From an uncultured Nitrososphaerales archaeon (GTDB taxonomy: Archaea; Thermoproteota; Nitrososphaeria; Nitrososphaerales; Nitrososphaeraceae): DNA of 64,000 nucleotides. Under the pieces are notes generated by a model that did not search any database, was not told where the DNA came from, and saw only the letters and a list, made by a program, of their open reading frames with translations. The number at the start of each line of letters is the position of its first letter. Position 1 is the first letter of the stretch. Position numbers and translations under genes: made by a program. The stretch is from NCBI GenBank assembly GCA_963709405.1, contig CAVPXM010000055.1, forward strand, positions 288,001-352,000. Reading direction: 5' to 3'. This document shows positions 8,285 through 56,759 of the stretch, piece after piece.

Positions 8285-8374
8285 GGGCTCGTAGCTCAGT
8301 ATGGATAGAGCGCCTGCCTTCTAAGTTTTATCGAAGAAAGCCGGAAGTCGTGGGATCGAAGCCCACCGGGCCCG
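8285..8374 (+). tRNA. tRNA-Arg(TCT) with 15-nt intron at 37/38 (8324-8338)
   Basis: Acceptor GGGCTCG/CGGGCCC, D arm GCTC..GAGC, anticodon TCT at 8320-8322, T arm GTGGG-ATCGAAG-CCCAC. Confidence 0.88.
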
Positions 8375-8464
8375 CTCGTTCCAAATTTGCCTACAAGTGA
8401 TGACAGCTGAATTTTTGACTTTTCTAAAAGATTTTAAGTAGCTTTCTACGCATTGACTCCACAT

Positions 8465-14988: not shown

Positions 14989-15709
14989 ATGGCTAAGAGC
15001 AATGATAAAAAAGCCATTTGCATAGTCAGCGGTGGGCTGGATTCAATATGCGCCGGCAGCGTATGTCAGTCGTATAAAGAAGTATAATATTTACATGATT
15101 AACTTTTCGTATGGGCAAAGAGCTAAAATGGAATTGTCCATAGCAAGAGACTTTGCAATTGCATTAAAGGCGAAACGTTATCATTCCGTCGACATTAGCT
15201 TCATGAAGAATTTTTATGGGCAAACAAATGCGTTGACTGACGATGCAATAAAGATGCCGTTAAGGTTTCAACACAATATTGTCGTCCCTATAAGGAATGC
15301 TATATTCATAACAATAGCGACGGCTTGGGCTCTGAGTATTAAAGCTCAAATCGTATGTTATGGAGCGCACACCGGGGACAACCACTACCCTGATTGCCGC
15401 CCTTCCTTTGTCAGATCCATAACTAGGACTCTAACCTTAGCAGATTTAGATAGTATCAAGGCAAAGTCGAGAAATAAGGTCAAAATCTGGTGTCCTGCGT
15501 CCTCAGGAATTGATAAGTCTAGTCTATTGAAAATCGGTTACCGGCTCTTAGGCAATGAAATTTTCAAAACGTGGAGTTGTTATTCGAATGGTGTAGACCG
15601 GAAAAATGCTACTAATAGTGTACAATGTGGAATTTGTGAATCATGTGTTAATAGGAAAAATGCGTTTAGAAAAGCAGGAATCGAAGACTTGACTGGGTAC
15701 GATAGATAG
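14989..15709 (+). CDS. queC: 7-cyano-7-deazaguanine synthase QueC (frameshift ~15055)
   Basis: SGGLDS read by hand at the 5' end; FSYGQR, VPIRN, YPDCRP, TWSCY and CGICESC motifs. Confidence 0.92.
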
Positions 15710-16020
15710 AGGTCCGTGATAACGGGCTCTAACGCATGAAAAGGATTTCGTTCTACCACGTGATTAATTTAGTTCTGGATAGTTTAAGCAGTTTGCCATA
15801 TTAACGTTGAGAAAATCACCTATCAACTAATCCTTTTTTGGATAGAAAATAAATGTTGACTCTTTGAGACAATAGAGTTATAATAGAGGCATTAGTCTTA
15901 ATTAATGAGCCAATAGTGAAGCGGCTTTTAATATATTACTATGACATTTACTGCTTAGTGTTTGTCCTACCTTGTACACAAAGAAAGCTAGAGGAGCTCG
16001 AGGAGCTCGAGGATTAGACA

Positions 16021-16629
16021 TTGTATCAGAACTTTGAAAACGAAAACTCGAAGCCATCGAAGAATCCTGTCAATAAAAGGAAGATAGAAAAGTTACTAAG
16101 GGAGCTTTTGATCGAATTAGGTGAGAATCCCGACCGGGAAGGTTTACTTGACACCCCTCGACGAATCGCAGACATGTACGAAGAGATTTTTGGTGGATAT
16201 AGAATTGATGCAGGATTGGATGTAAGTTTTAGTGAGGAAACAGACGCAATAATTGCTAAGGATATTCAGTTCTATAGTATGTGCGAACATCATATGCTTC
16301 CATTTTATGGCAAAATCCATATTGCATATATTCCTAATGGGAAGGTATTTGGCATCTCTAAATTAGTTCGACTGGTAGAAAAGTATTCTAGAAGAATGCA
16401 AATCCAAGAAAGATTAACAAAGGAAATCGCAACTGAGATAATGGAAATGGGAGTAAAGGGGGTGTTAGTTATCACGGAAGGGGAACATCTGTGTATGAAA
16501 ATGAGAGGCGTTCGTAATGATAGTGTAATCCTAACCTTAGCACATCGTGGAATAATGGAGAATAAAGAGATTCGTGAAAGTGCTCTCGTACTTTTATATA
16601 ACACTAAAGCTAAATTGCGAGCTATATGA
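16021..16629 (+). CDS. folE: GTP cyclohydrolase I
   Basis: REGLLDTPRR, SMCEHHMLPF, QIQERLT and HLCMKMRGV motifs. Confidence 0.95.
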   Translation: MYQNFENENSKPSKNPVNKRKIEKLLRELLIELGENPDREGLLDTPRRIADMYEEIFGGYRIDAGLDVSFSEETDAIIAKDIQFYSMCEHHMLPFYGKIHIAYIPNGKVFGISKLVRLVEKYSRRMQIQERLTKEIATEIMEMGVKGVLVITEGEHLCMKMRGVRNDSVILTLAHRGIMENKEIRESALVLLYNTKAKLRAI

Positions 16630-17156: not shown

Positions 17157-17499
17157 TCTTCTTACCTATAGGAAATATTCTTTTTTATAAGCCTTCTCTT
17201 CTATTCCTATAAGTAAATTGTACTGGAAATTAAAGATCCTAATAGGATCTCGACTTTTCAAATAAATGTCTAACAAGTCAGGCTGACAGGCCTATATGGT
17301 TGCTAGGCGGATTTTGATGAAACGCTTGGTTTGGGATGCTTTCGAATGTTAAACTCTGCTGCTCTCAATACCAATAGCATACATGATTTGATATTGTTGG
17401 ATTTTCCACTCCAGTGTACCTCACGCGGAACATTTCGTGTTGCATGATAGAGCTGGGAAATCAAATAAATATGCACGTGACTGCTTCAATGTGTTATCC

Positions 17500-19102
17500 A
17501 TGAATGACGACCGAATGTCTATGGCCGCTAAATGCTATGCGCAGTTGGAACAATCTGGTATCAAGGTAGGCAAAGTGCATCATAATCTGCCACCTGCATC
17601 ATTGATTGAGGTTGCCATTCGTAAGAGGGAGGGAATGCTATCTCTTACTGGAGCTCTGACAGTGAACACCGGAAAGTACACAGGCCGATCACCAGATGAT
17701 AGATTTATAGTAGACGATGAAATTACGCACAGCACCGTAGACTGGGGAAAAGTGAATCATCCTCTATCTCAAGAAAAATACAGTCTAATCTTCAACAGGT
17801 TAAGGGATCAGCTTGACCAGAAGGAATACTTTGTTTTTGATGGGTTTGTAGGAGCTGACAAAAAGGTAAGACTTCCAATAAGAGTGCTTACAGACAAAGC
17901 ATGGCAATGCCTGTTTGCAAACCAGATATTTCTTAGGCCTCATGCTATAGAGCTTCAGACATTCCAGCCTGAATTTAGTTTGATTTCCGTCAATGATTTC
18001 AAGGCCATTCCCGAGATAGATGGAACAAAGAGTGAGACATTTATAATAATAAATTTCTCCAAGAGAATGATAATTATTGGATCTACTTCCTACGCTGGCG
18101 AAATTAAGAAAGCAATGTTCTCAATTATGAGCTATCTTCTTCCACTTAGGGGTATTTTTCCTATGCACTGCTCTGCTAATATCGGGCCTGAAGGAGACAC
18201 TGCATTATTTTTTGGGCTATCTGGTACCGGAAAAACCACCCTTTCAGCTGACAGGGAACGGCATCTCGTCGGAGATGATGAACATGGATGGACTGAAGAT
18301 GGGATATTCAATTTTGAGGGTGGCTCGCTATGCTAAATGTATACATTTAAAAAAAGAACGCGAACCGCAGATATGGAATGCCATTAGGTTCGGAGCTGTG
18401 ATGGAAAATGTAGTTGTAAGCAAAAAGACAAGAGTACCTGACTTTGATGATGGGGCACTCACAGAAAACACTAGAGTCGTATATCCGCTTGAATTCATAC
18501 CCGGTTCTGTCATTCCAAGCTTGGCTACCCATCCTAAGGTGATAATCTTTTTAACTGCCGACGCATTCGGGGTGATGCCTCCAATTTCCAAACTAAGTCG
18601 AGAAGGTGGGATGTATCACTTCATGTCTGGTTATACAAGCAAACTAGCTGGGACAGAGAGAGGCATTACCGAGCCGCAGGAGACGTTTTCTCAATGTTTT
18701 GGAGCTCCATTCATGATGCTTCCGGCCAGTCGCTATGCTCAAATGCTAGGGGAAAAAATACTTGCCCATAATACTAAAGTATACTTGATAAATACTGGTT
18801 GGTATGGAGGGCCATACGGTGTCGGAAAAAGAATAAATCTTGATTATACAAGATCAATGGTAAGAGCCGTCATTAGAGGATTACTTGATAATCAGTCATA
18901 TGAACATCACCCTATTTTTAATCTGGATATTCCGACGGCTTGTCCAGATGTACCTCCTGAGATCTTAAATCCAGTTAATACTTGGCCTGACAAGGAGAAA
19001 TATAATACGGCTGCTCGCAGATTAGCTTCATTATTTGTCAAGAATTTTGAAAAGTTCAATGACATACCCCAAGAAGTAAGGGATGCAGGTCCGATTTTAT
19101 AA
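17500..19102 (+). CDS. pckA: ATP-dependent phosphoenolpyruvate carboxykinase (frameshift ~18325)
   Basis: [45 protein letters not shown] and YLINTGW motifs. Confidence 0.95.
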
Positions 19103-19107
19103 AGGAG

Positions 19108-19248
19108 TAGCCCGGAGCAGATTCGAACTGCTGTCTCCAGGTTTCTTTTCTCTTTAGAGATCCAGAGCCTGAAATCCCTAGCCCTACCATGGAGATTGGC
19201 CACTAGATTCGGCACCCGCTTGCTCTACTGTGCAGGTTCGACCGGGCT
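19108..19248 (-). tRNA. tRNA-Gln(CTG) with three introns: 10/11 (19238-19208), 21/22 (19195-19178), 37/38 (19161-19143)
   Basis: Removing the three segments gives a 73-nt cloverleaf AGCCCGGTCG-TCTAGTGGCCAA-GGATTTCAGGCTCTGG-ACCTGGAGACAGCAGTTCGAATCTGCTCCGGGCTA; each junction forms a bulge-helix-bulge. Confidence 0.88.
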
Positions 19249-19305
19249 TCTACCAAGCTACACCAAACTGAAAACACTACCAATATTTGACTTTAGCGTT
19301 TTGTA

Positions 19306-47789: not shown

Positions 47790-48266
47790 CTACAATATCT
47801 GATTGTTATTATTGCAATCGTTATTCAATTCTTCATTATTTGGCATATGATCGCCAATGTATTTTTTCTTCAACTTCTTGCTTTCAGGATCTTTCCAGTA
47901 TGCGTAGTAGTAAGGCCCATGCTTTTGTTCACACATCTCTTTTCCGCACTTGATGTATTCCTTTCTTATTGTTGCATTCTCAGGTATTGATTTGACTCTA
48001 TTAGCACAAGCAAGCTGTTTTGATTTCATTTTATTTATGAACTTATTTGATTTCTCAATTGTCTTGTTAGCGTTTTCAAGTACTTTTTGCAATGAGGCGT
48101 GCCTATTTCCAAAAAGAGGTTTACTCCAATCAAATGATAGCTTCCTGCTGTTGTATTTATACAGAGATCCTAATTCGTTGAAATGTGACTGCGATCTAGA
48201 GTTGTTATCATTACTGTTGTTGCTGGGGACATTATGATATCTGCCTAAGCGTTTTGTATTAGTCAA
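47790..48266 (-). CDS. Small basic Zn-binding protein (DUF6788-like), mobile-element associated
   Basis: EYIKCGKEMC..HGPYYYAYW..KKKYIG motif. Confidence 0.65.
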   Translation of the reverse strand: MTNTKRLGRYHNVPSNNSNDNNSRSQSHFNELGSLYKYNSRKLSFDWSKPLFGNRHASLQKVLENANKTIEKSNKFINKMKSKQLACANRVKSIPENATIRKEYIKCGKEMCEQKHGPYYYAYWKDPESKKLKKKYIGDHMPNNEELNNDCNNNNQIL

Positions 48267-48758
48267 ATGATCTTATTATTATCATATAATATTTTCCTAA
48301 TACTAAATTTTTTCTTGTATTTTAGAGCGAGTATGCATAGCGCACGATATTCTTTATTATTATAGGTAAATAAAAACATGTTCCAGAGTTTTCAATCACA
48401 TCATGCTTACTATCCTTACGATCCTTACTTATAGATAGATGTTAATTCGTGATAAAATATCCGGTGAGTTTGATATTTAGTAATGATGGTAAGGGTGATA
48501 AGCATCATATAGTGCAAAGTTTCTGGATTCATTAGGTAATTATCCGTTATCATGATAATTCGTCATATTAAAGAGTAAAATGATACTGTAATTCCTTTAT
48601 TTACTACCGCTGTCTATTTCATTTTATTATCAGTACAGGAGATGTAGCATAGTGATTACTGTGGAAGCAACTTGCTTTTTTGACCGTTCCTTAGTAGGAA
48701 ATACAATTAGATGGTTAAAACAGGTGTGCCTTGCAGTTTTTCAAATAGCTATTTTGTT

Positions 48759-48935
48759 GTTATTTTGTCTGCAACGATAGAACAAATCAACAAAATTACA
48801 ATGTAATGAATTGTACCCTTTGTAAATAAATAGCAGAGTTGACCCGTGTTTAAAAATGGATCAAATTAATTCTGGAGAAAGGGTGAGAGGGAAATGACGA
48901 GTACCAGCAAGAAACAGAATGGGACAATTACAGGA
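48759..48935 (+). repeat. Dispersed promoter/leader repeat, copy 1
   Basis: Core 48789-48896 differs from copy 2 at 2 positions and from copy 3 at 6; similarity to copy 3 spans 48759-48935. Confidence 0.95.
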
Positions 48936-49076
48936 GAGACGACGGGCCAGTCATCAATGGAGTCGCTTGGCGGAGCCAAGAAACTTGACAAAAACGACCC
49001 CAAATTTCAAGTTGGTATGCTAGCAATGAAAACCGAAGCAGGCAGGACAACAAATCACGCCGCTTCATCAACGTAG
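48894..49076 (+). pseudogene. 60-aa leader ORF, probably an internally deleted homologue of the 53607 gene
   Basis: Same MTS start context as 53607; shares AGTCGCTT and CTTGACAAAAACGACCCC (SL..LDKNDP) with 53962-53990. Confidence 0.65.
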
Positions 49077-49090
49077 AAAGAGAAGACAGT

Positions 49091-50919
49091 ATGTTCTACA
49101 GTAACGGTAACTACGAAGCATTCATTCGTCCCCGCAAGCCGCAGGGCGTGGACGAGAAGTCTGCCTATCTCATCGGCGGTGGCATCGCCTCGCTCGCGGC
49201 GGCGGGCTTTTTGATCCGCGACGGGCAGATGGATGGCAAACGCATCACCATCTACGAGGCGAGCAATATCGCCGGCGGCTGCCTGGACGGCATCAAGGAC
49301 CCAAAGGAGGGCTACCTCTTCCGCGGCGAGCGCGAGATGGAGGACCACTACGAGTGCCTGTGGGATCTGATGCGCTCGATCCCGTCGCTCGATGTCGAGG
49401 ACGCCTCGGTCCTTGAAGACTTTTACCAGGTCAACAAGGACCACCCCAACTACTCCCTGTGCCGGACCACTCACAAGCGCGGGCAGCCCTTCCCGACCGA
49501 CGGCAAGATGCTCCTGACCCCCAAGGCGCAGGGCGAGCTGATGAAGCTCTTCTACACCCGCAGAAGAGAGCTATTCGACAGGCGGTTCGAGGAATTCGTG
49601 AGCGAGGAGTTCTTCACCAGCAACTTCTGGGTGTATTGGCTGTCGATGTTCGCTATCGGGCCCTGGCACGGCGCCCTGGAGATGAAGCTCTACATGAACC
49701 GCTTCGTCCAGCACTTCGGTGGGATGACGGATCTCAGCACTATCAAGTTCACTCGCCTCAACCAGTTCGACTCGCTGGTCCTCCCGCTAGTCAAGTGGCT
49801 CGAGCAGCAAGGCGTCACGATTGTGTACGACACGAAGGTCACCAACGTCGTGTTCGACATCACCCCGGAACGCAAGGTCGCTCGCCGGATCGAGTGGATT
49901 CAAGGCGGAAAGCGCGGAGGACGCGACGTCACTAAGAACGACCTCGTCCTCATTACCAACGGCTCTGCGGTCGAAAACACCTCGTGGGGGGACCACCACA
50001 CCCCGGCCAAGTGGATCAGGGACATCCAGGAGGGCAGCATCTGGGCGATGTGGCGCAACATCGCCGCCCAGGACGCCGCCTTCGGTCAGCCCGACAAGTT
50101 CTGTACCCACACCGACAAGAGCAGCTATGAGTCGGCATGCATCATCACCCTCGACGACAAGATTCCGCCCTACATCGAGCGGATCTGCCAGCGCGACCCG
50201 TACAGTTTCGACTCGAGCCCCATCACCGGTGGCTTGGTGACCGTGCGCGATTCCAATTGGATCCTGTCGTGGAACGTCGAGCGCAACCCGCACTTCAGGA
50301 ACGCGCCGAAGGACCAGCTGATGATCCACGCCTACGGCACGTACAGCCTCGACCGGCCCGGCAACTACGTCACGAAGGCGATGCGTGAGTGCACCGGCGA
50401 GGAGATCGCCCGGGAATGGCTCTACCACCTGGGGGTGCCGGACGATCAGATCAACCAGCTGGCGGCCAAGTCGGTGAACGTGCATCCGTGCATGATGCCC
50501 TACATCACGGCCTTCTTCTTGCCCCGGCGTGACGGCGACCGTCCCAAGGTGGTGCCCGAGGGAGCGGTCAACTTCGGGTTCCTGGGGCAGCTCGCCGAGA
50601 GCCACCCGCGGGACGTCATCTTCACCGTCGAATACTCGGTGCGGACGGCGATGGAGGCGGTCTACACCCTGCTGGACATCGAGCGGGGCGTGCCGGAGCC
50701 GTGGGGCTCGCAGTACGACATTCGTGCGCTGCTCAACTCGGCGATCGTGCTGCGGGATGGCGAGAAGCTAAAGCTGCCCCCCATGCTCGAGGCTACGTGT
50801 TGAACACCGAAATCGGCGAGCTGTTGAGGGACTACGGGTTAATCGGCGAACTCGGCGACAACGAGCTCACGGTCGCGATACACAAGAACCCTCCGCGGGT
50901 GACTCGCACGGTCCTTTAG
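49091..50919 (+). CDS. ohyA: Oleate hydratase (MCRA family, FAD-dependent), bacterial GC-rich; frameshift ~50790
   Basis: MFYSNGNYEAF start, IGGGIAS, RGEREMEDHYECLWDL.RSIPS, MMPYIT and FTVEYSVRTAMEAVY motifs; tail TEIGELLRDYGLI in the next frame. Confidence 0.93.
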
Positions 50920-51144
50920 AGACTAGTGGAGAGACGGAATGGACAGGGAACTTCTATGTTTACAAGATCGGGCTGGTTCGGCTCTTAGCGGAGGACCGGG
51001 AGCGGGTTTACGCGCGTGCTCCAGTCCTCCTTTGCCTTCAGCGGACGGCGCACCTTGGAAAGAGTTCGAGTCCAATTGGTCGCCTCCCCAACGCCAAAGT
51101 TCCGTTTCTCTTCTGACGAAGTATCGCCCGCAATCGTTCGAGAC

Positions 51145-51280
51145 TAGCCCGGATCGATGGGATGTGAAAAGAGCGGATATCGGAACGCTGGGCTATAGCG
51201 TTTTCGAGCGAAGTGGGTACCCGGTTCCCGTGACGAGATAGAGAACGCGTCAAAGCAAATGCATAGAGCCTCGGCTCTAG
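51145..51280. repeat. Hyphomicrobiales (Bradyrhizobium-like) intergenic repeat element(s)
   Basis: AGCGTTTTCGAGCGAAGTGG..ACCCGGTTC.CGT..AACGCGTCAAA..TAGAGC matches, from memory, a common rhizobial intergenic repeat; preceded by TAGCCC..GGGCTA inverted ends. Confidence 0.6.
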
Positions 51281-51293
51281 GGAAAACGGAGGA

Positions 51294-51545
51294 ATGCGAT
51301 TGAACGAGAGGTTGACAAAGTGGGCGGCAGCCGCTGTGCTGTCGATTGTCGCCGCTGCGCCGGCGCTTGGCGGCTCCGTCACGCGTCAGGGTGACACAGC
51401 TGGCCTTGCGGTGGGAATGCCGCTCCCTCCAGGCTTCTATTTGCAGAATCAACTGACCGAGGATTACGTGGTCACAAGCCCGCATGACACGTCTGTCCTA
51501 GACGATGTCCCCGTCTTGGTTTGGTCGACCCCCTGGACGATTTAG
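51294..51545 (+). pseudogene. N-terminal fragment of a bacterial SphA/MetA-pathway-type outer-membrane transporter
   Basis: Bacterial SD GGAGG, signal peptide, G.PLPPGFY and VPVLVWSTPWTI motifs; stops where GC content falls. Confidence 0.6.
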
Positions 51546-51686
51546 CTGAGCGAGCGCGCTTTGCACTAGCAAAATATGCATTAGATACTAAGCCCTCTTT
51601 GTCTACCCAGTCTCCTACTACATAGAATTGTCTGTCCCCCCTGACCCCCCCCACAGGTTTTAATATTAAATATTTTCGTATATATT

Positions 51687-52628
51687 ATGAAAGCCGGAAT
51701 ATTCTTACCGCAATCTGGAGACTCTGCGACAAGAGATAACGTTCTCTATATTGCAAATGAGGCTGAAAGGGAAGGCTTTAAATCTGTTTGGGTAATGGAG
51801 CGACTTTTGTGGCCAATGAAGCCCCAGTCACCATATCCTGGAACACCTGATGGTTCTCTTCCGGTTGAATACCAAAATGTACTTGACCCACTGGAGACGC
51901 TTACCTACTTGGCAGGCAATACCAATCAAATTTCTTTAGGAACTTGTATAATTGATATGCTGTTTCATAATCCATTAGTATTAGCAAGGCGATTTGCAAC
52001 ACTCGACATCCTGTCGCAGGGAAGGGCTATTGCAGGTCTAGGAATCGGATGGTCAAAAGATGAGTATGAAGCTTCAGGTATACCTTACAAATACAGAGGA
52101 GAAAGGGCAAATGAATATTTGCAAGTGCTAAAACGAATTTGGACCGATGAGGTAGTCGAATTTAAAGGTCACTTCTACTCGATACCAGCTTCAAAAATTG
52201 GGCCTAAGCCTGTGCAGAAGCCTCATCCCCCAATACTGCTAGGTGGATTCAGTCCAAAGACATTCTTACGAATAGTAAACTATGCGGATGGTTGGATATC
52301 TGTTGCCGGATTTGGACCATTGAAACAGCTTGAACAGGCTATAAACGGCTTAAGAGAAGGCGCAAGAAAAGCCGACAAAGACCCTTCAAAGATTCGTGTA
52401 GTTATGTTGACGTATCCGAATGTGCTAGACTCCTCCTCCTCAAATTCCTCCTCAGAGCCACAGAGATTGCCCATGACTGGTACCATTGACCAAATTGGAA
52501 CTGACATTGATCAAATCAAAGCGATGGGCGTAGAGCATATAATATTCGGCCATTTCTTATCTCCAACAGGCAAGGATATGAAGAAGATGATCGAGATAAC
52601 GAAACAGCTTGCTAAATTTGCTAAATAA
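51687..52628 (+). CDS. LLM-class (probably F420-dependent) oxidoreductase
   Basis: SVWVMERL, LDPLETL, ATLDILSQGR..GLGIGW and PKPVQKPHPPI motifs; host-like codon usage. Confidence 0.9.
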   Translation: MKAGIFLPQSGDSATRDNVLYIANEAEREGFKSVWVMERLLWPMKPQSPYPGTPDGSLPVEYQNVLDPLETLTYLAGNTNQISLGTCIIDMLFHNPLVLARRFATLDILSQGRAIAGLGIGWSKDEYEASGIPYKYRGERANEYLQVLKRIWTDEVVEFKGHFYSIPASKIGPKPVQKPHPPILLGGFSPKTFLRIVNYADGWISVAGFGPLKQLEQAINGLREGARKADKDPSKIRVVMLTYPNVLDSSSSNSSSEPQRLPMTGTIDQIGTDIDQIKAMGVEHIIFGHFLSPTGKDMKKMIEITKQLAKFAK

Positions 52629-52843
52629 AAATGGAGGCTACTATAGTAAATTTATGAGAGGCTCTCGTGATTGCTACGTCATCGGTTTTTGTGAAACTAT
52701 ATCTGTTTTTTGAGATCTCCATTTTCCAATGTTATCGTATTTATCGTATTGCATTTCTCACACTTGGCACAAGAGTCAGTTATATTCCAAAAAGCGTAGG
52801 GAGTAAGAGAATTTAATTCACCGTATTTCTTACACGAATTATA

Positions 52844-53074
52844 CTACTTCCAATGCAATTCTCTGAGTACAAAATTTCCACTCTCTTCTTTCTCACCCTT
52901 ATATATACCCAGCATATTATTCAAAAAAGATAGTTTCCCAGTAGAATTTATGCTATATGCTGATGCCCCTTGATAGTCTGTAAAATTTCTTACATCTATG
53001 GAACTATAGTTTGCCGTCTCACTCCCATCCTTGGTCGTTATTACTCCATCCTTGGTCGTGCTTAGATGGAGCAT
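52844..53074 (-). pseudogene. Fragment of a thaumarchaeal hypothetical protein
   Basis: ITTKDGSETANY..STGKLSFLNNMLGIYK..LHWK with a local TTKDG duplication; broken 5' end. Confidence 0.45.
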
Positions 53075-53310
53075 GCCATTTGGTTTTGTTATCTACCTGT
53101 CTCCAGTATTCAAGTATTCTGTGATCCATATTGTAGTAATAGTTGGTAGCTGCCGATAGGTCCTCGTGTGAATCTGAAACTATTCTTGTTTTTTAAGTTC
53201 TCCGTTCTTGAGGGCTATCGTAGTTGTCCGGTCTTATAGCATGTAGTTATTTCTAATATATGAGTGCTTAAGAATATTCGACCACATTATATAGATATGA
53301 AAACAATCGC

Positions 53311-53501
53311 ATGGGCACGATTCTGTATATCTATACAGATTCAAAACATAACAATCCTCTCTGTAGGGTGACACCTATAGAGAACCTAGAATCTCTTCCC
53401 CAATACGATAAGGGAAAATATAAAGAAATGATACTTGATGCTACTACAACAGTTTACAATTTTTTTGGCTTTGATAGGACCATTTATAGCAATTTCAAGA
53501 G
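53311..53501 (+). pseudogene. C-terminal remnant of a family-B DNA polymerase-like gene
   Basis: ILYIYTDS.H.NPLCRV..YDK.KYKEMILDA...FFGFDR resembles the end of thaumarchaeal PolB paralogues; runs directly into repeat copy 2. Confidence 0.55.
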
Positions 53502-53620
53502 AACAAAATTACAATGTAATGAATTGTACCCTTTGTAAATAAATAGCAGAGTTGACCCGTGTTCAAAAATGAATCAAATTAATTCTGGAGAAAGGGTGAG
53601 AGGGAAATGACGAGTTCCAG
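53502..53620 (+). repeat. Dispersed promoter/leader repeat, copy 2
   Basis: AACAAAATTACAATGTAATGAATTGTACC...GAGAGGGAAATGACGAGT, near-identical to 48789 and 63188. Confidence 0.95.
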
Positions 53621-54221
53621 TAACGTTACCAAAAAGTCAGGTAAGGGCAACAACCACGGCTTTGTCTCGGAGGTGAGCGCATACATGACCGTCAAGCCGG
53701 GTCACGAGGAGGAGGCGCGAGCGGCTTGTCGCCGCTTCGGCGACATGCTGCGTAACTCCGACCCGAAGGCTGTACAGAAGACTGGTCTGCGCGACGCGCG
53801 GTTGGTGGTCTTCGATGACGGTCGACGACTTATGTTCGCCTCTGGCTTCGAGACCGAATGGGACCCATACGTCGACGATGCCATTCTGATCGTTGGCATC
53901 GAACACTTTCTGGACTGGATGCAGCATACCGTAGAGGCAGAAGAACTTGTGGCATCGGTGAAGTCGCTTAACCTTGACAAAAACGACCCCGATTTGGATG
54001 AGAAAGTGAAGCCGGCCGGCGCCAAACTCAAGGCGGTCATCCAGTCGATTCAGACCCCAGCGACCGCCTACTTCAATGCACTGAGCGATCTTACGGTGCC
54101 ACAGATAAAGAAGGCCCAGCGCCTCCAACAGGCCTTCCAGCAGGTGCTCGACGACCCAGCCGCCCAGGATGCACTCAAACACCCGGCCCTGAAGCCGCTG
54201 CTAGAGCAGGCGGCCGACTGA
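53607..54221 (+). CDS. Bacterial-type DyP-associated hypothetical protein
   Basis: DARLVVFDDGRRLMFASGFETEWDPYVDD motif; GC-rich body with an AT-richer first ~10 codons. Confidence 0.75.
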   Translation: MTSSSNVTKKSGKGNNHGFVSEVSAYMTVKPGHEEEARAACRRFGDMLRNSDPKAVQKTGLRDARLVVFDDGRRLMFASGFETEWDPYVDDAILIVGIEHFLDWMQHTVEAEELVASVKSLNLDKNDPDLDEKVKPAGAKLKAVIQSIQTPATAYFNALSDLTVPQIKKAQRLQQAFQQVLDDPAAQDALKHPALKPLLEQAAD

Positions 54222-54252
54222 CCTGGGTACCCGTAGGTAGTAAGATAGAACC

Positions 54253-55433
54253 ATGTCAGACCATTTCTCTGGACCCCGGGCGATAGCGGGTCCGGCCGGC
54301 GACATCACTGATCTCTATGTGTTCCCCAGCCCTGAGCGCCCGGGCCATCTTGTGCTCGTGCTGGACGTGCAGCCAGACGCCCCCCATGACTCGTACTTTT
54401 CAGATGCGATCGTCTATCGCTTCCGGCTGCGGCCACTCACCATTTCGGGCGTAGGGGCAGCCGCAGCCTTTCCCTTCGCCGGCGAGGACAAAGAGATAGT
54501 CTTCAGCTGCCACTTCGAGGCTCCGCGGCAAGGCGGAGCTGGAGTGGCGCCTGTGCAGGAAGGTTGGTGTGAGACGCCGTCGGGTGAGACGACACGCTTC
54601 CGCGTTCACGAGGAGAGGGGCGCGAGCAGCGATGGCCTGCGCGTCTTTGCCGGCCTCAGAGCGGAACCATTCTTCTTCGATGTGCAGGCCCTCATAGAGT
54701 CGCAAAAGACTGGGCGGCTTGCCTTCAAGGAGGTCGGGACCAATGCCGCGATCGGCTTCAACGTTCTGAGCATCGTCGTCGAGGCTGACTGTCGGCCGTG
54801 GCTGCGCAGCGGCAGCGGGCCACTGCTAGCGGTGGTCGGCGAGACGGTGGTCGCCGGCAAGCTCCCGATCCGGATCGAGCGAATAGGCCGCCCAGAGATC
54901 AAGAACGTGATCTTGCAGTTGAAGCAGTTTGACCAGGTCAATCGCGACATGGAGCTGCGCGATCTCTACAACCTCGAAGACGCCTTCCACATGAGCAAGG
55001 ACTATGGTGGCGCCTACCGTGCCGGTTGAACGCCAACCTGGCCTTCAACGATCGCCTTGACGGTAAGACGGACTGGCAGCTCGGCCCGGATGGCGCCCAC
55101 CCCCTGACCGAGCTGCTACTCGCCGACTATCTAGTCGTCGACGTCTCACGGCCGTACGCCGCCGACAGCTTCTTTGAGATCGAGCAGGCGACTCTCGATG
55201 GGCACGCCCACCAAACGTGTGGTGGCCGGTCGCTGAACGACGACGTGATGGACAAGCTGCTCACACTGCTCGTTAACGGCGGCAAAGGACCGCGCGTGAG
55301 TGACGGCGTGGACCGGCCGGCAACCCCGGTCTCGGACGTCTTCCCCTACCTAGGCGCCGCCAACTCATCAGCCGCGGGCCAAGCAAGGACTGGGCCTTGC
55401 AATCGGCCAAGCAAGCAAGTAAGGAGACTATGA
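54253..55433 (+). CDS. DUF4331-family protein (frameshift ~55025)
   Basis: MSDH..DITDLYVF, VFAGLR.EPFFFD, RIGRPEI and GGRSLNDDVMD..FPYLG motifs. Confidence 0.75.
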
Positions 55434-56759
55434 CCGCTAAGTCGACCGTCGCGCTGGAGCTTGACGACATCCAGGCCGGCGCCCTAGAGCCGCGGCCGGT
55501 TCCTTACGCGGGTATATACCAGATCCTGCGTCTTGACGACCGGCATGCAGGGCGTGAGCTGCTGCGGCGGCTAATCCCGTATCTCGACTCGGTTGCCTCC
55601 TTCGATCCCAAAACGCCGGTGTCGCTCGCCGTGGCACTCAGCTTCCAGGGTCTCAAAGCCCTCGGGGTACCGGAGGAGTCACTTGCCAGCTTCCCACCCG
55701 AGTTCCAGCAGGGAATGGCCGCACGAGCGGCCGAGCTTGGGGACGTGGGGGAGAACGCTCCCGAGCACTGGGAGAAACCGCTGGGTTCGCAGGACGGCCA
55801 TCTCGTGGTGGTCGGGCTCGCGCCCGACACTGCCCGCCTGGAGGCCGCTTTCCGCTACGCCCGCGACGCCCTACGCGATCTGTCCGGCGTCGTGCCCATC
55901 TGGCAACAGGACGTACACGCCGCGGCTGACCTGCGCAACATGTTCGGTTTCGCGGACGGCATCGCCCATCCGGCCGTCGAGGGTACTGGCATTCCCGGCA
56001 CCAATCCGTACGAAGTGCCGCTCAAGGCGGGCGAGTTCGTCCTGGGGTACGAGGATGAGACCCACAACCTCCCCCCCGTACCGCAGCCCGAGGTGCTGGG
56101 CCGCAACGGCACCTACGCGGTCTTCCGCAAGCTGCACACGCGCGTAGCCGCCTTCCGCCAGTACCTGCGCCAGCACGCCAAGGACCGCGCCGAGGAGGAG
56201 TGGCTGGCCGCCAAGATCGTCGGGCGCTGGCCGCAGCGGCGCGCCGCTGGCACTGACTCCGGACAAGGACGATCCCGAACTTGGGGCCGACCCGAAACGC
56301 AACAACGCCTTCATGTTCGGCGACGACCCGCATGGCCTCAAGTCCCCGATCGGCGCGCATGTCCGACGGATGAACCCCCGCGACTCGGTCGTCATTGGCG
56401 AAGTGCGCTTGCACCGCATGATCAGGCGCGGCACCAACTATGGCCCGCCGCTGCCCCCGGACGTCCTGGAGGACGACGGCGCCGACCGCGGCCTCATATT
56501 CGCCTTTGTCGGGGCGCACCTTGACCGGCAGTTCGAGTTCATCCAGAGGGAGTGGGTAAACGACGGCAAGTTCATCGGCGCACCGGCCGAAAAGGACCCG
56601 CTGGTGGGCAGTAACGATGGCCGTGAATTCACCATCCCGAAGCAGCCAATCCGCCGCCACCTCAAGGGACTGCCCGCTTTCGTCGTCAATCGCGGCGGCG
56701 AATACTGCTTCATGCCCGGCCTGCGGGCGCTGCGCTGGCTCGCCGATCTCGACACTTGA
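55430..56759 (+). CDS. Dye-decolorising (DyP-type) heme peroxidase (frameshift ~56235)
   Basis: FGFADGI (GxxDG), GEFVLGY, NGTY.VFRKL, AHVRRMNPR, HRMIRRG and QFEFIQ motifs; ATGA overlap with the DUF4331 gene. Confidence 0.92.

Follow-up and report, generated by a model that had tools for sequence, protein, structure and literature searches.

How can an intron be removed from a tRNA precursor when its splice motif has to be built from bases that the acceptor stem also needs? The question is raised by a tRNA-Gln(CTG) gene in a 64,000-nucleotide (nt) stretch of DNA from an uncultured Nitrososphaerales archaeon of the Nitrososphaeraceae (GenBank assembly GCA_963709405.1, contig CAVPXM010000055.1, positions 288,001 to 352,000). 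We call this whole stretch the window and count positions from its first letter. The gene carries three introns of the bulge-helix-bulge (BHB) type, one of them between tRNA positions 10 and 11, where the motif would have to unzip the acceptor stem. The analysis is computational throughout and draws on sequence, alignment and folding models. Across the class, the 10/11 intron and a copy of the 5' acceptor strand in the leader are nearly always found together and are missing together. We propose, with a probability of about 0.5, that the leader of every tRNA-Gln gene with a 10/11 intron may act as a stand-in acceptor strand, which would free bases 5-8 for the splice motif, tether the first exon and delay RNase P. 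Taken as a whole, with the gene and intron model and the leader pairing considered together, the account appears probable.

A tRNA-Gln(CTG) gene in four exons

The gene spans 141 nt on the minus strand (19248..19108) and runs from the 5' acceptor strand through the T arm to the 3' acceptor strand and discriminator A, with inserts of 31, 18 and 19 nt at precursor positions 11-41, 54-71 and 88-106. CCA is not encoded at its 3' end. Its parts, and the leader element discussed below, are as follows.

19260-19253, minus strand: leader mimic of the acceptor 5' strand, TAGCTTGG, at positions -12 to -5; 8 pairs with positions 66-73, two of them G-U
19248-19239, minus strand: exon 1, tRNA positions 1-10 (5' acceptor strand, U8, C9, G10); orthologues lacking intron 1 are contiguous across the junction
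19238-19208, minus strand: intron 1, 31 nt, site 10/11; GCCG at its 3' end forms the central helix with exon bases 5-8; bulges CG|A and AA|T; 6-bp inner helix
19207-19196, minus strand: exon 2, positions 11-21 (5' strand of the D-stem and D-loop)
19195-19178, minus strand: intron 2, 18 nt, site 21/22; GGCC/GGCT on D-loop bases 17-20; bulges AA|T and AG|G; 2-bp inner helix
19177-19162, minus strand: exon 3, positions 22-37, including the anticodon CTG
19161-19143, minus strand: intron 3, 19 nt, canonical site 37/38; CTCT/AAAG with 3 of 4 pairs; bulges GG|A and AA|A; 4-bp inner helix; the anticodon stem is the outer helix
19142-19108, minus strand: exon 4, positions 38-73 (3' strand of the anticodon stem, 4-nt variable loop, T arm, 3' acceptor strand, discriminator A)

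An earlier note, made from the letters of this stretch, had described three BHB-type introns at 10/11, 21/22 and 37/38 of a tRNA-Gln(CTG). We re-derived coordinates, strand, insert lengths and junctions from the sequence and arrived at the same values, here in a thaumarchaeal genome of the Nitrososphaeraceae. As the note also held, computed removal of all three inserts leaves a 73-nt product, which ARAGORN calls as tRNA-Gln(ctg) with a normal cloverleaf (stems of 7, 4, 5 and 5 bp, a 4-nt variable loop and a TTCGAAT T-loop). The spliced sequence reads anticodon CUG, pair A1-U72 and discriminator A73, as expected of a tRNA-Gln; the last two are identity elements of archaeal tRNA-Gln. The same acceptor stem and T arm are also found in intron-less tRNA-Gln genes of Methanomicrobiales and Nitrososphaeria. 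The gene is very probably a functional tRNA-Gln(CTG) gene with three introns as modelled.

The warning that standard scans could miss such a gene proved right for two tools. ARAGORN made no tRNA call on the unspliced locus in either default or intron mode, and Rfam gave no match there at the gathering threshold and, at E<=10, nothing more than a tmRNA fragment of 12.8 bits on the T arm. Annotation based on ARAGORN and Rfam thus silently loses an essential tRNA in this group. When the window was scanned for hidden tRNAs with a T-arm plus acceptor motif, nothing was returned beyond the present gene and one AT-rich chance match.

The 10/11 intron in glutamine tRNAs of the class

Comparison genes come from one scan of species-representative genomes with a T-loop/3'-acceptor pattern, which returned at least 120 loci; the counts given here describe that sample. 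Because the pattern kept the 3' acceptor strand fixed, the acceptor strand was unable to covary in this material. In all, 117 of 120 loci could be parsed from the 5' acceptor strand to the 3' end, the others being cut by a contig end (L007, L025) or having no 5' half within 170 nt (L056). Thirty of the listed loci hold 73-nt genes without introns, from Methanomicrobiales and relatives, three lie on Asgard or mis-binned contigs, and the remaining 84, together with the window, belong to Nitrososphaeria or are labelled Thaumarchaeota/Thermoproteota.

Thirty-three CTG genes, the window included, fit one exon template and form the comparison set. Introns are present at all three sites in 23 of them, that is, in at least 22 Nitrososphaeraceae loci besides the window, and by the test that the earlier note itself had set, the layout is therefore not new at the sequence level. 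The other 10 have introns 2 and 3 only and are contiguous across G10|T11, while an intron at 37/38 is found in 33/33. Lengths across the set range over 22-36 nt for intron 1, 13-26 nt for intron 2 and 14-29 nt for intron 3. At least 10 other loci have a mature sequence identical to that of the window gene, and at least 28 share its phosphoenolpyruvate carboxykinase (PEPCK) neighbour at about 65-78% identity; judged by their sequences, the loci sharing this neighbour are orthologues. No close relative of the window genome was found among the listed loci. We used PEPCK for a midpoint-rooted tree of 21 rows (20 loci and the window), leaving out 8 loci with short fragments. Five genes without intron 1 lie within one Nitrososphaera clade of eight (support 99/98), beside three with the intron, and all 13 other rows have intron 1. 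Given a root outside the Nitrososphaera clade, the tree points to one or two precise losses of intron 1.

The intron is not confined to the CTG isoacceptor. Forty-two tRNA-Gln(TTG) genes from Nitrososphaeraceae, Nitrosocosmicus, Nitrosopumilaceae/Nitrosarchaeum and Nitrosocaldus have an intron exactly at 10/11 with the same architecture, and in 39/42 it is the sole intron. The earlier note did not recall 10/11 as a common insertion site; within the class the site is used in 65 of the 85 parsed tRNA-Gln genes (23 CTG and 42 TTG) and is, as far as these genes go, the standard site for glutamine tRNAs. It is absent from the intron sites named in the available text of a review whose list ends with 'etc.' (PMC4090602). 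Our literature search, with the key 2007 and 2008 catalogues outside its range, turned up no account of a tRNA-Gln with an intron at 10/11. The CTG and TTG introns share constrained parts only (the first base, GCCG and the AA bulge) and differ in their inner helices (ACC../..GGT versus GGA../..TCC); a common origin is possible. Transposed intron families of the Thermoproteales type are marked by near-identical introns in different tRNA genes, at matching or other sites.

Some of the sampled loci stand apart. By sequence alignment alone, L095 (132 nt) seems to be a three-intron gene and L035 and L019 two-intron genes of the TTG type, with one or more introns in addition to that at 10/11; if these introns are real, multi-intron layouts arose in both isoacceptors. 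In one metagenome-assembled genome (MAG; assembly DATFEP01), two CTG genes with three introns each, L017 and L089, differ from one another and lie on separate contigs, which reflects either a real duplication or a mixed bin. L056, on Nitrosocosmicus MAG contig WHSX01000256.1, covers just the 3' half of a tRNA-Gln(TTG) gene, and no 5' acceptor strand could be recognised in the 170 nt upstream; the locus could be a remnant or a split gene, or its intron could be very long. The Asgard tRNA-Gln genes L078 (Borrarchaeum, 139 nt) and L093 (Hodarchaeota, 99 nt) have the same acceptor stem and T arm with inserts elsewhere. Finally, L073, a 1.6-kb contig in an Anaerolineales bacterium bin, has an archaeal tRNA-Gln with exactly the sequence of the Methanoregula type and is probably mis-binned.

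A leader copy of the acceptor strand accompanies the 10/11 intron

Inspection of the flanks revealed gTAGCTCG immediately upstream of every CTG gene with intron 1, and its absence from those without. We scored each leader by the length of the longest stretch in its last 25 nt that could pair with the 3' acceptor strand, G-U pairs included; L017 has no upstream sequence and falls outside the resulting set of 64 genes with the intron. A score of at least 6 was reached by 63/64 in-class genes with a 10/11 intron (scores of 6, 7 or 8; L100 scores 3), by 1/20 in-class genes without it (L027 scores 7, the others 3-5) and by 0/33 out-of-class genes (scores 3-5). Within the class the association has a Fisher p of 1e-16, a value uncorrected for, and inflated by, the relatedness of the genes.

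The stretch takes the form GCCCGG in TTG genes and, in another register, TAGCTCG in CTG genes. In TTG leaders GCCCGG lies at -7 to -2 and is a direct repeat of bases 2-7; in Nitrosocaldus it reads TAGCCCGG. In the intron-less TTG genes of Nitrosotalea, Nitrosotenuis and other Nitrosopumilaceae the leader stretch is missing and the mature sequence equals that of the intron-bearing orthologues. Likewise, at most a shifted 5-nt leader remnant is left in the Nitrososphaera CTG genes without intron 1. The tie between leader and 10/11 intron appears to be unreported: we found no description of a leader acceptor mimic, or of its link to the intron, in a literature search that had the 2007 and 2008 catalogues, GtRNAdb and tRNAscan-SE Tables S2 and S7 outside its range. 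For annotators seeking such genes, the leader copy offers a simple extra signature.

The upstream 40 nt of L027 contain a further TAGCCCGG copy about 20 nt higher, which forms an inverted repeat.

Splice motifs and their conservation

At intron 1 the central helix CGGT/GCCG forms four pairs, including one U-G, and the inner stem ACCTGC/GCGGGT six; at intron 2, GGCC/GGCT forms four pairs, including one G-U. These helices and all six bulges are present as the earlier note had drawn them, and the part that did not stand is its CTCT/AAAG helix at intron 3, where only three of the four positions pair. In the strict hBHBh' form, a 4-bp central helix stands between two bulges of 3 nt, each cut after its second base. 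At introns 1 and 2 every position of the central helix pairs and both bulges measure 3 nt, but an outer helix is absent, and for that reason they are of the relaxed HBh' type and not strict hBHBh' motifs (the relaxed types HBh', hBH and BHL are defined in the available text of PMC5829648). Intron 3 is near-canonical, with both bulges, the outer helix, a 4-bp inner helix and one central C-A mismatch. All three introns thus have the central helix, 5' bulge and inner helix of a relaxed motif.

The pairing at intron 1 is well supported by comparison. Its GCCG strand pairs fully with exon bases 5-8 in 64/65 genes, and shifted registers were rejected since each allows full pairing in at most 4/65. 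The strand reads GCCG in 40 genes, GCTG in 13, ACCG in 8, GTCG in 2, and ATCG and GCCA in one each; all 25 departures from GCCG are transitions, and 24 of them still pair with G6, G7 or U8, the exception being GCCA. Both bulges are 3 nt long in 65/65 genes. The inner helix is highly variable in sequence between genes and keeps its complementarity, with a mean of 5.1 bp with its own partner versus 1.77 bp when arms are swapped between genes. In a MAFFT alignment of the 33 CTG genes, 94.5% of cells pair according to the window structure, compared with 34-51% (maximum 50.8%) when partners are slid. Changes on both sides were found at 12 pairs, including five of the six in the intron-1 inner helix, and the covariation score was reached by 0/500 shuffles.

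The central helix of intron 2, formed by D-loop bases 17-20 and the intron, is fully paired in 32/33 genes, and one of its C-G pairs has become U-A in 4 loci. That of intron 3 has three of four pairs in 31/33 genes, with its C34-A mismatch conserved, and is fully paired in two distant genes with GGGG (L005 and L011). A shifted 3-bp register for intron 3, taken from the minimum free energy (MFE) structure, was discarded: L005 and L011 fit only the register first proposed. For introns 2 and 3, support comes from conservation and not from covariation.

Modelled competition with the acceptor stem and modelled effect of the leader

The central helix of intron 1 takes acceptor-stem bases 5-7 and U8. 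The earlier note expected this helix to compete with the cloverleaf, and folding bears it out. Without flanks, the helix is predicted in 0/65 full-length ensembles, and forcing it costs 6.4 kcal/mol in the window gene (mean 6.5, range 2.7-13.1 over 65 genes, nearest-neighbour folding). In fragments without the 3' acceptor strand, it is the MFE structure of the window gene and has P>0.5 in 28/65 genes. The MFE structure of the 141-nt precursor (-51.8 kcal/mol, z = -2.2) has an intact acceptor stem, with bases 8-10 paired to the intron. This alternative 8-10:intron helix was set aside as the splicing structure, being possible in only 21/65 genes.

Addition of a 14-nt leader changes the balance. 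In the 64 genes folded in this way, the intron-1 central helix reaches P>0.5 in 26/64 with the native leader, and in 0/64 both with no leader and with a shuffled one. The cost of the splicing-competent conformer is lowered by the leader in 63/64 genes, in the window gene from +6.4 to +2.2 kcal/mol. In TTG genes the mean cost with leader is -1.7 kcal/mol, and the conformer is favoured in 29/42. The best structure containing the intron-1 central helix uses the helix between leader and 3' strand.

Where the transcript starts bears on how much of the motif would be RNA. The promoter is predicted from the following element.

19282..19288, minus strand: TATA-like element AAATATT, predicted promoter, about 34-40 nt upstream of the tRNA 5' end

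A block ..gtcAAATAT.. is conserved at equal distance in most orthologous CTG loci. With the usual archaeal spacing from TATA element to start, transcription is predicted to begin near -12, about 26 nt below the AAATAT block, so that the leader would be little more than the mimic itself. The primary transcript would then be about 150 nt long, with a 12-13-nt leader and three short introns.

We suggest the following course of events, in which the transcription start, splicing itself, the pairing of the leader in the cell and the timing relative to RNase P are inferred. Intron 1 and bases 5-8 would be transcribed first and could already take up the motif. The 3' strand would appear about 120 nt further on and could pair with the free leader, an imperfect copy of the 5' acceptor strand, no strand displacement being needed; bases 5-8 would then be left to the intron-1 motif. 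The splicing endonuclease, which in archaea cuts introns at BHB-type motifs, would then act, and the ligase would join the exons. After cleavage, the leader pairing would tether the 10-nt 5' exon to the tRNA body, to which it would otherwise be held by only four acceptor pairs. Once ligated, the true 5' strand, with its extra A1-U72 pair and no G-U, may displace the leader from the 3' strand. RNase P would remove the leader last, placing the splicing of intron 1 before 5' maturation. If this is true, the leader would serve in cis as an RNA chaperone and tether, through which an intron at the junction of acceptor stem and D-arm becomes tolerable, and would hard-wire an order between splicing and end processing. 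On the folding and comparative results, we lean slightly towards a functional pairing of leader and 3' strand.

Several observations weigh against this account of the introns and the leader. With the leader, the conformer still costs +2.7 kcal/mol on average in CTG genes and falls below zero in only 2/22; in the window gene its central helix has P = 0.04, the full acceptor stem remaining preferred at equilibrium. As equilibrium favours the acceptor stem in most CTG genes, a kinetic or enzyme-capture argument is needed. L100 has intron 1 and no leader match, and L027 is a CTG gene without intron 1 and with a 7-nt match. If transcription began downstream of -12, the start being predicted from sequence, part of the leader motif would lie outside the RNA. 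The 3' splice site of intron 1 has no closing outer helix, and the GCCG strand of intron 1 (19213-19210, minus strand) is complementary also to D-loop bases 16-19 (19203-19200, minus strand) in 60/65 genes. The C-A mismatch in the central helix of intron 3 is conserved. Swapping partners made little difference to the inner helices of intron 2 (2.29 bp own versus 2.30 bp cross) or intron 3 (3.39 versus 3.06 bp), where the test gives no signal because the sequences are conserved. Finally, a Pfam scan of 43 open reading frames (ORFs) in the 64-kb window found no splicing endonuclease or ligase gene among them.

Alternative explanations

The introns could be real and the leader motif without any role in the RNA, being instead promoter-proximal or initiator sequence, or the decaying relic of a tandem duplication of exon 1 that arose with the intron. 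We consider this possible, although the less likely explanation of the motif. It lies at the predicted transcription start, some 26 nt downstream of the TATA-like block; its likeness to exon 1 extends to the sequence itself, beyond its complementarity to the 3' strand; and the splicing conformer is not the equilibrium structure in CTG genes even when the leader is included. However, a relic would not be expected to last across Nitrosocaldus, Nitrosopumilaceae and Nitrososphaeraceae in 63/64 genes, nor to disappear wherever the intron is missing. The changes within the motif (C to T opposite G69 or G68, and the two registers) preserve pairing and not sequence, and no such leader precedes the window's other tRNA gene. 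It is doubtful, moreover, that GCCG pairs in the precursor with D-loop bases 16-19 in place of bases 5-8, leaving the acceptor stem intact and intron 1 to be cut from a bulge-helix-loop-like structure. Such pairing is allowed in 60/65 genes and saves the 6.5 kcal/mol that it takes to open the acceptor stem, but it fails in 5/65 genes as against 1/65 for the pairing with 5-8, places neither splice site in a 3-nt bulge beside a 4-bp helix, overlaps bases 17-20, which intron 2 requires in CTG genes, and leaves the leader association unexplained.

From the competition between intron-1 helix and cloverleaf, the earlier note had concluded that the three introns are removed in a fixed order. The competition is real in folding models, and archaeal tRNAs are described in which one intron must leave before the next BHB forms (available text of PMC8450103); in addition, D-loop bases 16-19, within reach of GCCG, overlap bases 17-20 used by intron 2, so introns 1 and 2 could interfere. 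Nevertheless, the conclusion was not supported, and a forced order seems unlikely. The 10/11 intron occurs alone in 39/42 intron-bearing TTG genes, where it must be handled independently of other introns, and competition with the acceptor stem therefore implies no order among the three. Their central helices lie on separate, non-overlapping exon segments (5-8, 17-20 and 32-35), for which one joint structure can be written, and lineages without intron 1 retain introns 2 and 3 unchanged. Least credible of all is a decayed pseudogene with chance insertions that is never spliced. The locus goes unrecognised by ARAGORN and Rfam, and the sequence examined is 64 kb of a genome that may hold an intact copy elsewhere. 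Against this, the exons are identical to those of at least 10 other loci, synteny extends to at least 28, and the intron helices are maintained through compensatory changes. Furthermore, assemblies that yielded both glutamine isoacceptors always gave an intron-bearing CTG gene (for example L024/L096, L074/L105 and L111/L107).

Relation to known systems

The comparisons in this section follow the available portions of the papers cited. Multi-intron thaumarchaeal tRNAs are known: tRNAscan-SE 2.0 has a dedicated BHB covariance model, reports 107 non-canonical thaumarchaeal introns in the genomes analysed and extends candidates by 60 nt to capture introns near the ends (PMC8450103). In view of this, the present gene is in itself ordinary, and most probably is the kind of target for which the thaumarchaeal model was made. 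The supplement on differences between versions 1.3 and 2.0, in its available part, has no Nitrososphaera Gln-CTG row. A leader element such as that of the present gene is not mentioned in the available text of the same paper (PMC8450103). Thaumarchaeota are reported to have the broad-specificity (alpha-beta)2 endonuclease, and no types other than (alpha-beta)2 and epsilon2 cut relaxed motifs (PMC5829648; PMC4090602).

The closest parallels are found in other archaea. In Thermoproteales (Pyrobaculum, Thermofilum; Sugahara et al. 2008 via PMC4033280, PMC8450103), tRNAs likewise have as many as three short introns, placed at canonical as well as non-canonical sites, with BHB or relaxed BHB motifs and a broad-specificity (alpha-beta)2 endonuclease, as expected here. 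Those organisms are hyperthermophiles of another class, whereas the present gene comes from mesophilic soil archaea; and their introns are spread over many tRNAs, whereas the set described here is stably inherited in one orthologous gene. Caldiarchaeum subterraneum also has a multi-intron tRNA-Gln(CUG) (PMC3082918), a parallel at the level of isoacceptor and multiple introns. Pre-tRNA-Glu(UUC) of Methanopyrus kandleri combines an HBh' intron at 20b/21, where the D-loop ends on its 3' side, with a canonical 37/38 intron, like introns 2 and 3 here, and a crenarchaeal (alpha-beta)2 enzyme cut both (PMC5829648). Unlike the present gene, it has no third intron, and none that draws on acceptor-stem bases. 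Flanking sequence also pairs in the split and permuted tRNAs of Nanoarchaeum equitans and Cyanidioschyzon (PMC4090602), where it forms the endonuclease substrate and holds the pieces together. In those tRNAs, however, the flanks form the BHB and are removed by the endonuclease, whereas here the leader would replace the 5' strand and be removed by RNase P.

An intron whose motif must unzip the acceptor stem has been kept across a whole class of abundant ammonia oxidisers. The tie to the leader bears on how the endonuclease is offered relaxed splice motifs that lie at awkward positions, and on whether splicing and RNase P cleavage follow a set order in archaea.

Surroundings of the gene in the window

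The window is archaeal chromosome, with genes for topoisomerase VI A and B, ribosomal proteins L1 and L10/P0, QueC and ThiC, and a GC content of about 39%. The tRNA gene stands tail to tail with the PEPCK gene, which ends at 19102 on the plus strand with its stop codon 5 nt from the tRNA 3' end. Between and across them lies one further element.

19094..19107, minus strand: T-rich trailer, likely terminator (role inferred), overlapping the PEPCK stop codon; orthologues also have T-rich trailers

The PEPCK gene (17437-19102, plus strand) is split into two overlapping ORFs that cover Pfam profile positions 2-253 and 255-464. Orthologues without this interruption, 539-575 aa long, align to frame 3 up to about 18354 and to frame 1 from about 18329, and the split is a frameshift, a pseudogene or a sequencing error. 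Genes for QueC and GTP cyclohydrolase I (7-deazaguanine precursor) lie at 15032-16629 on the plus strand, 2.5-4 kb from the tRNA gene, with no link seen between them. The other tRNA gene of the window, a tRNA-Arg(TCT) with a 15-nt anticodon-loop intron, lies at 8285-8375 (plus strand), just upstream of the ribosomal L1/L10 genes. It is matched by Rfam (44.4 bits) and by ARAGORN in intron mode, is missed by ARAGORN in default mode, and has a leader without an acceptor-strand mimic. Farther away, positions 48000-56000 form a GC-rich island (0.52-0.53 versus about 0.39 elsewhere) that looks like acquired DNA and encodes an MCRA-family (oleate-hydratase-like) protein, a luciferase-like monooxygenase, a DUF4331 protein and a weak DyP-like match.

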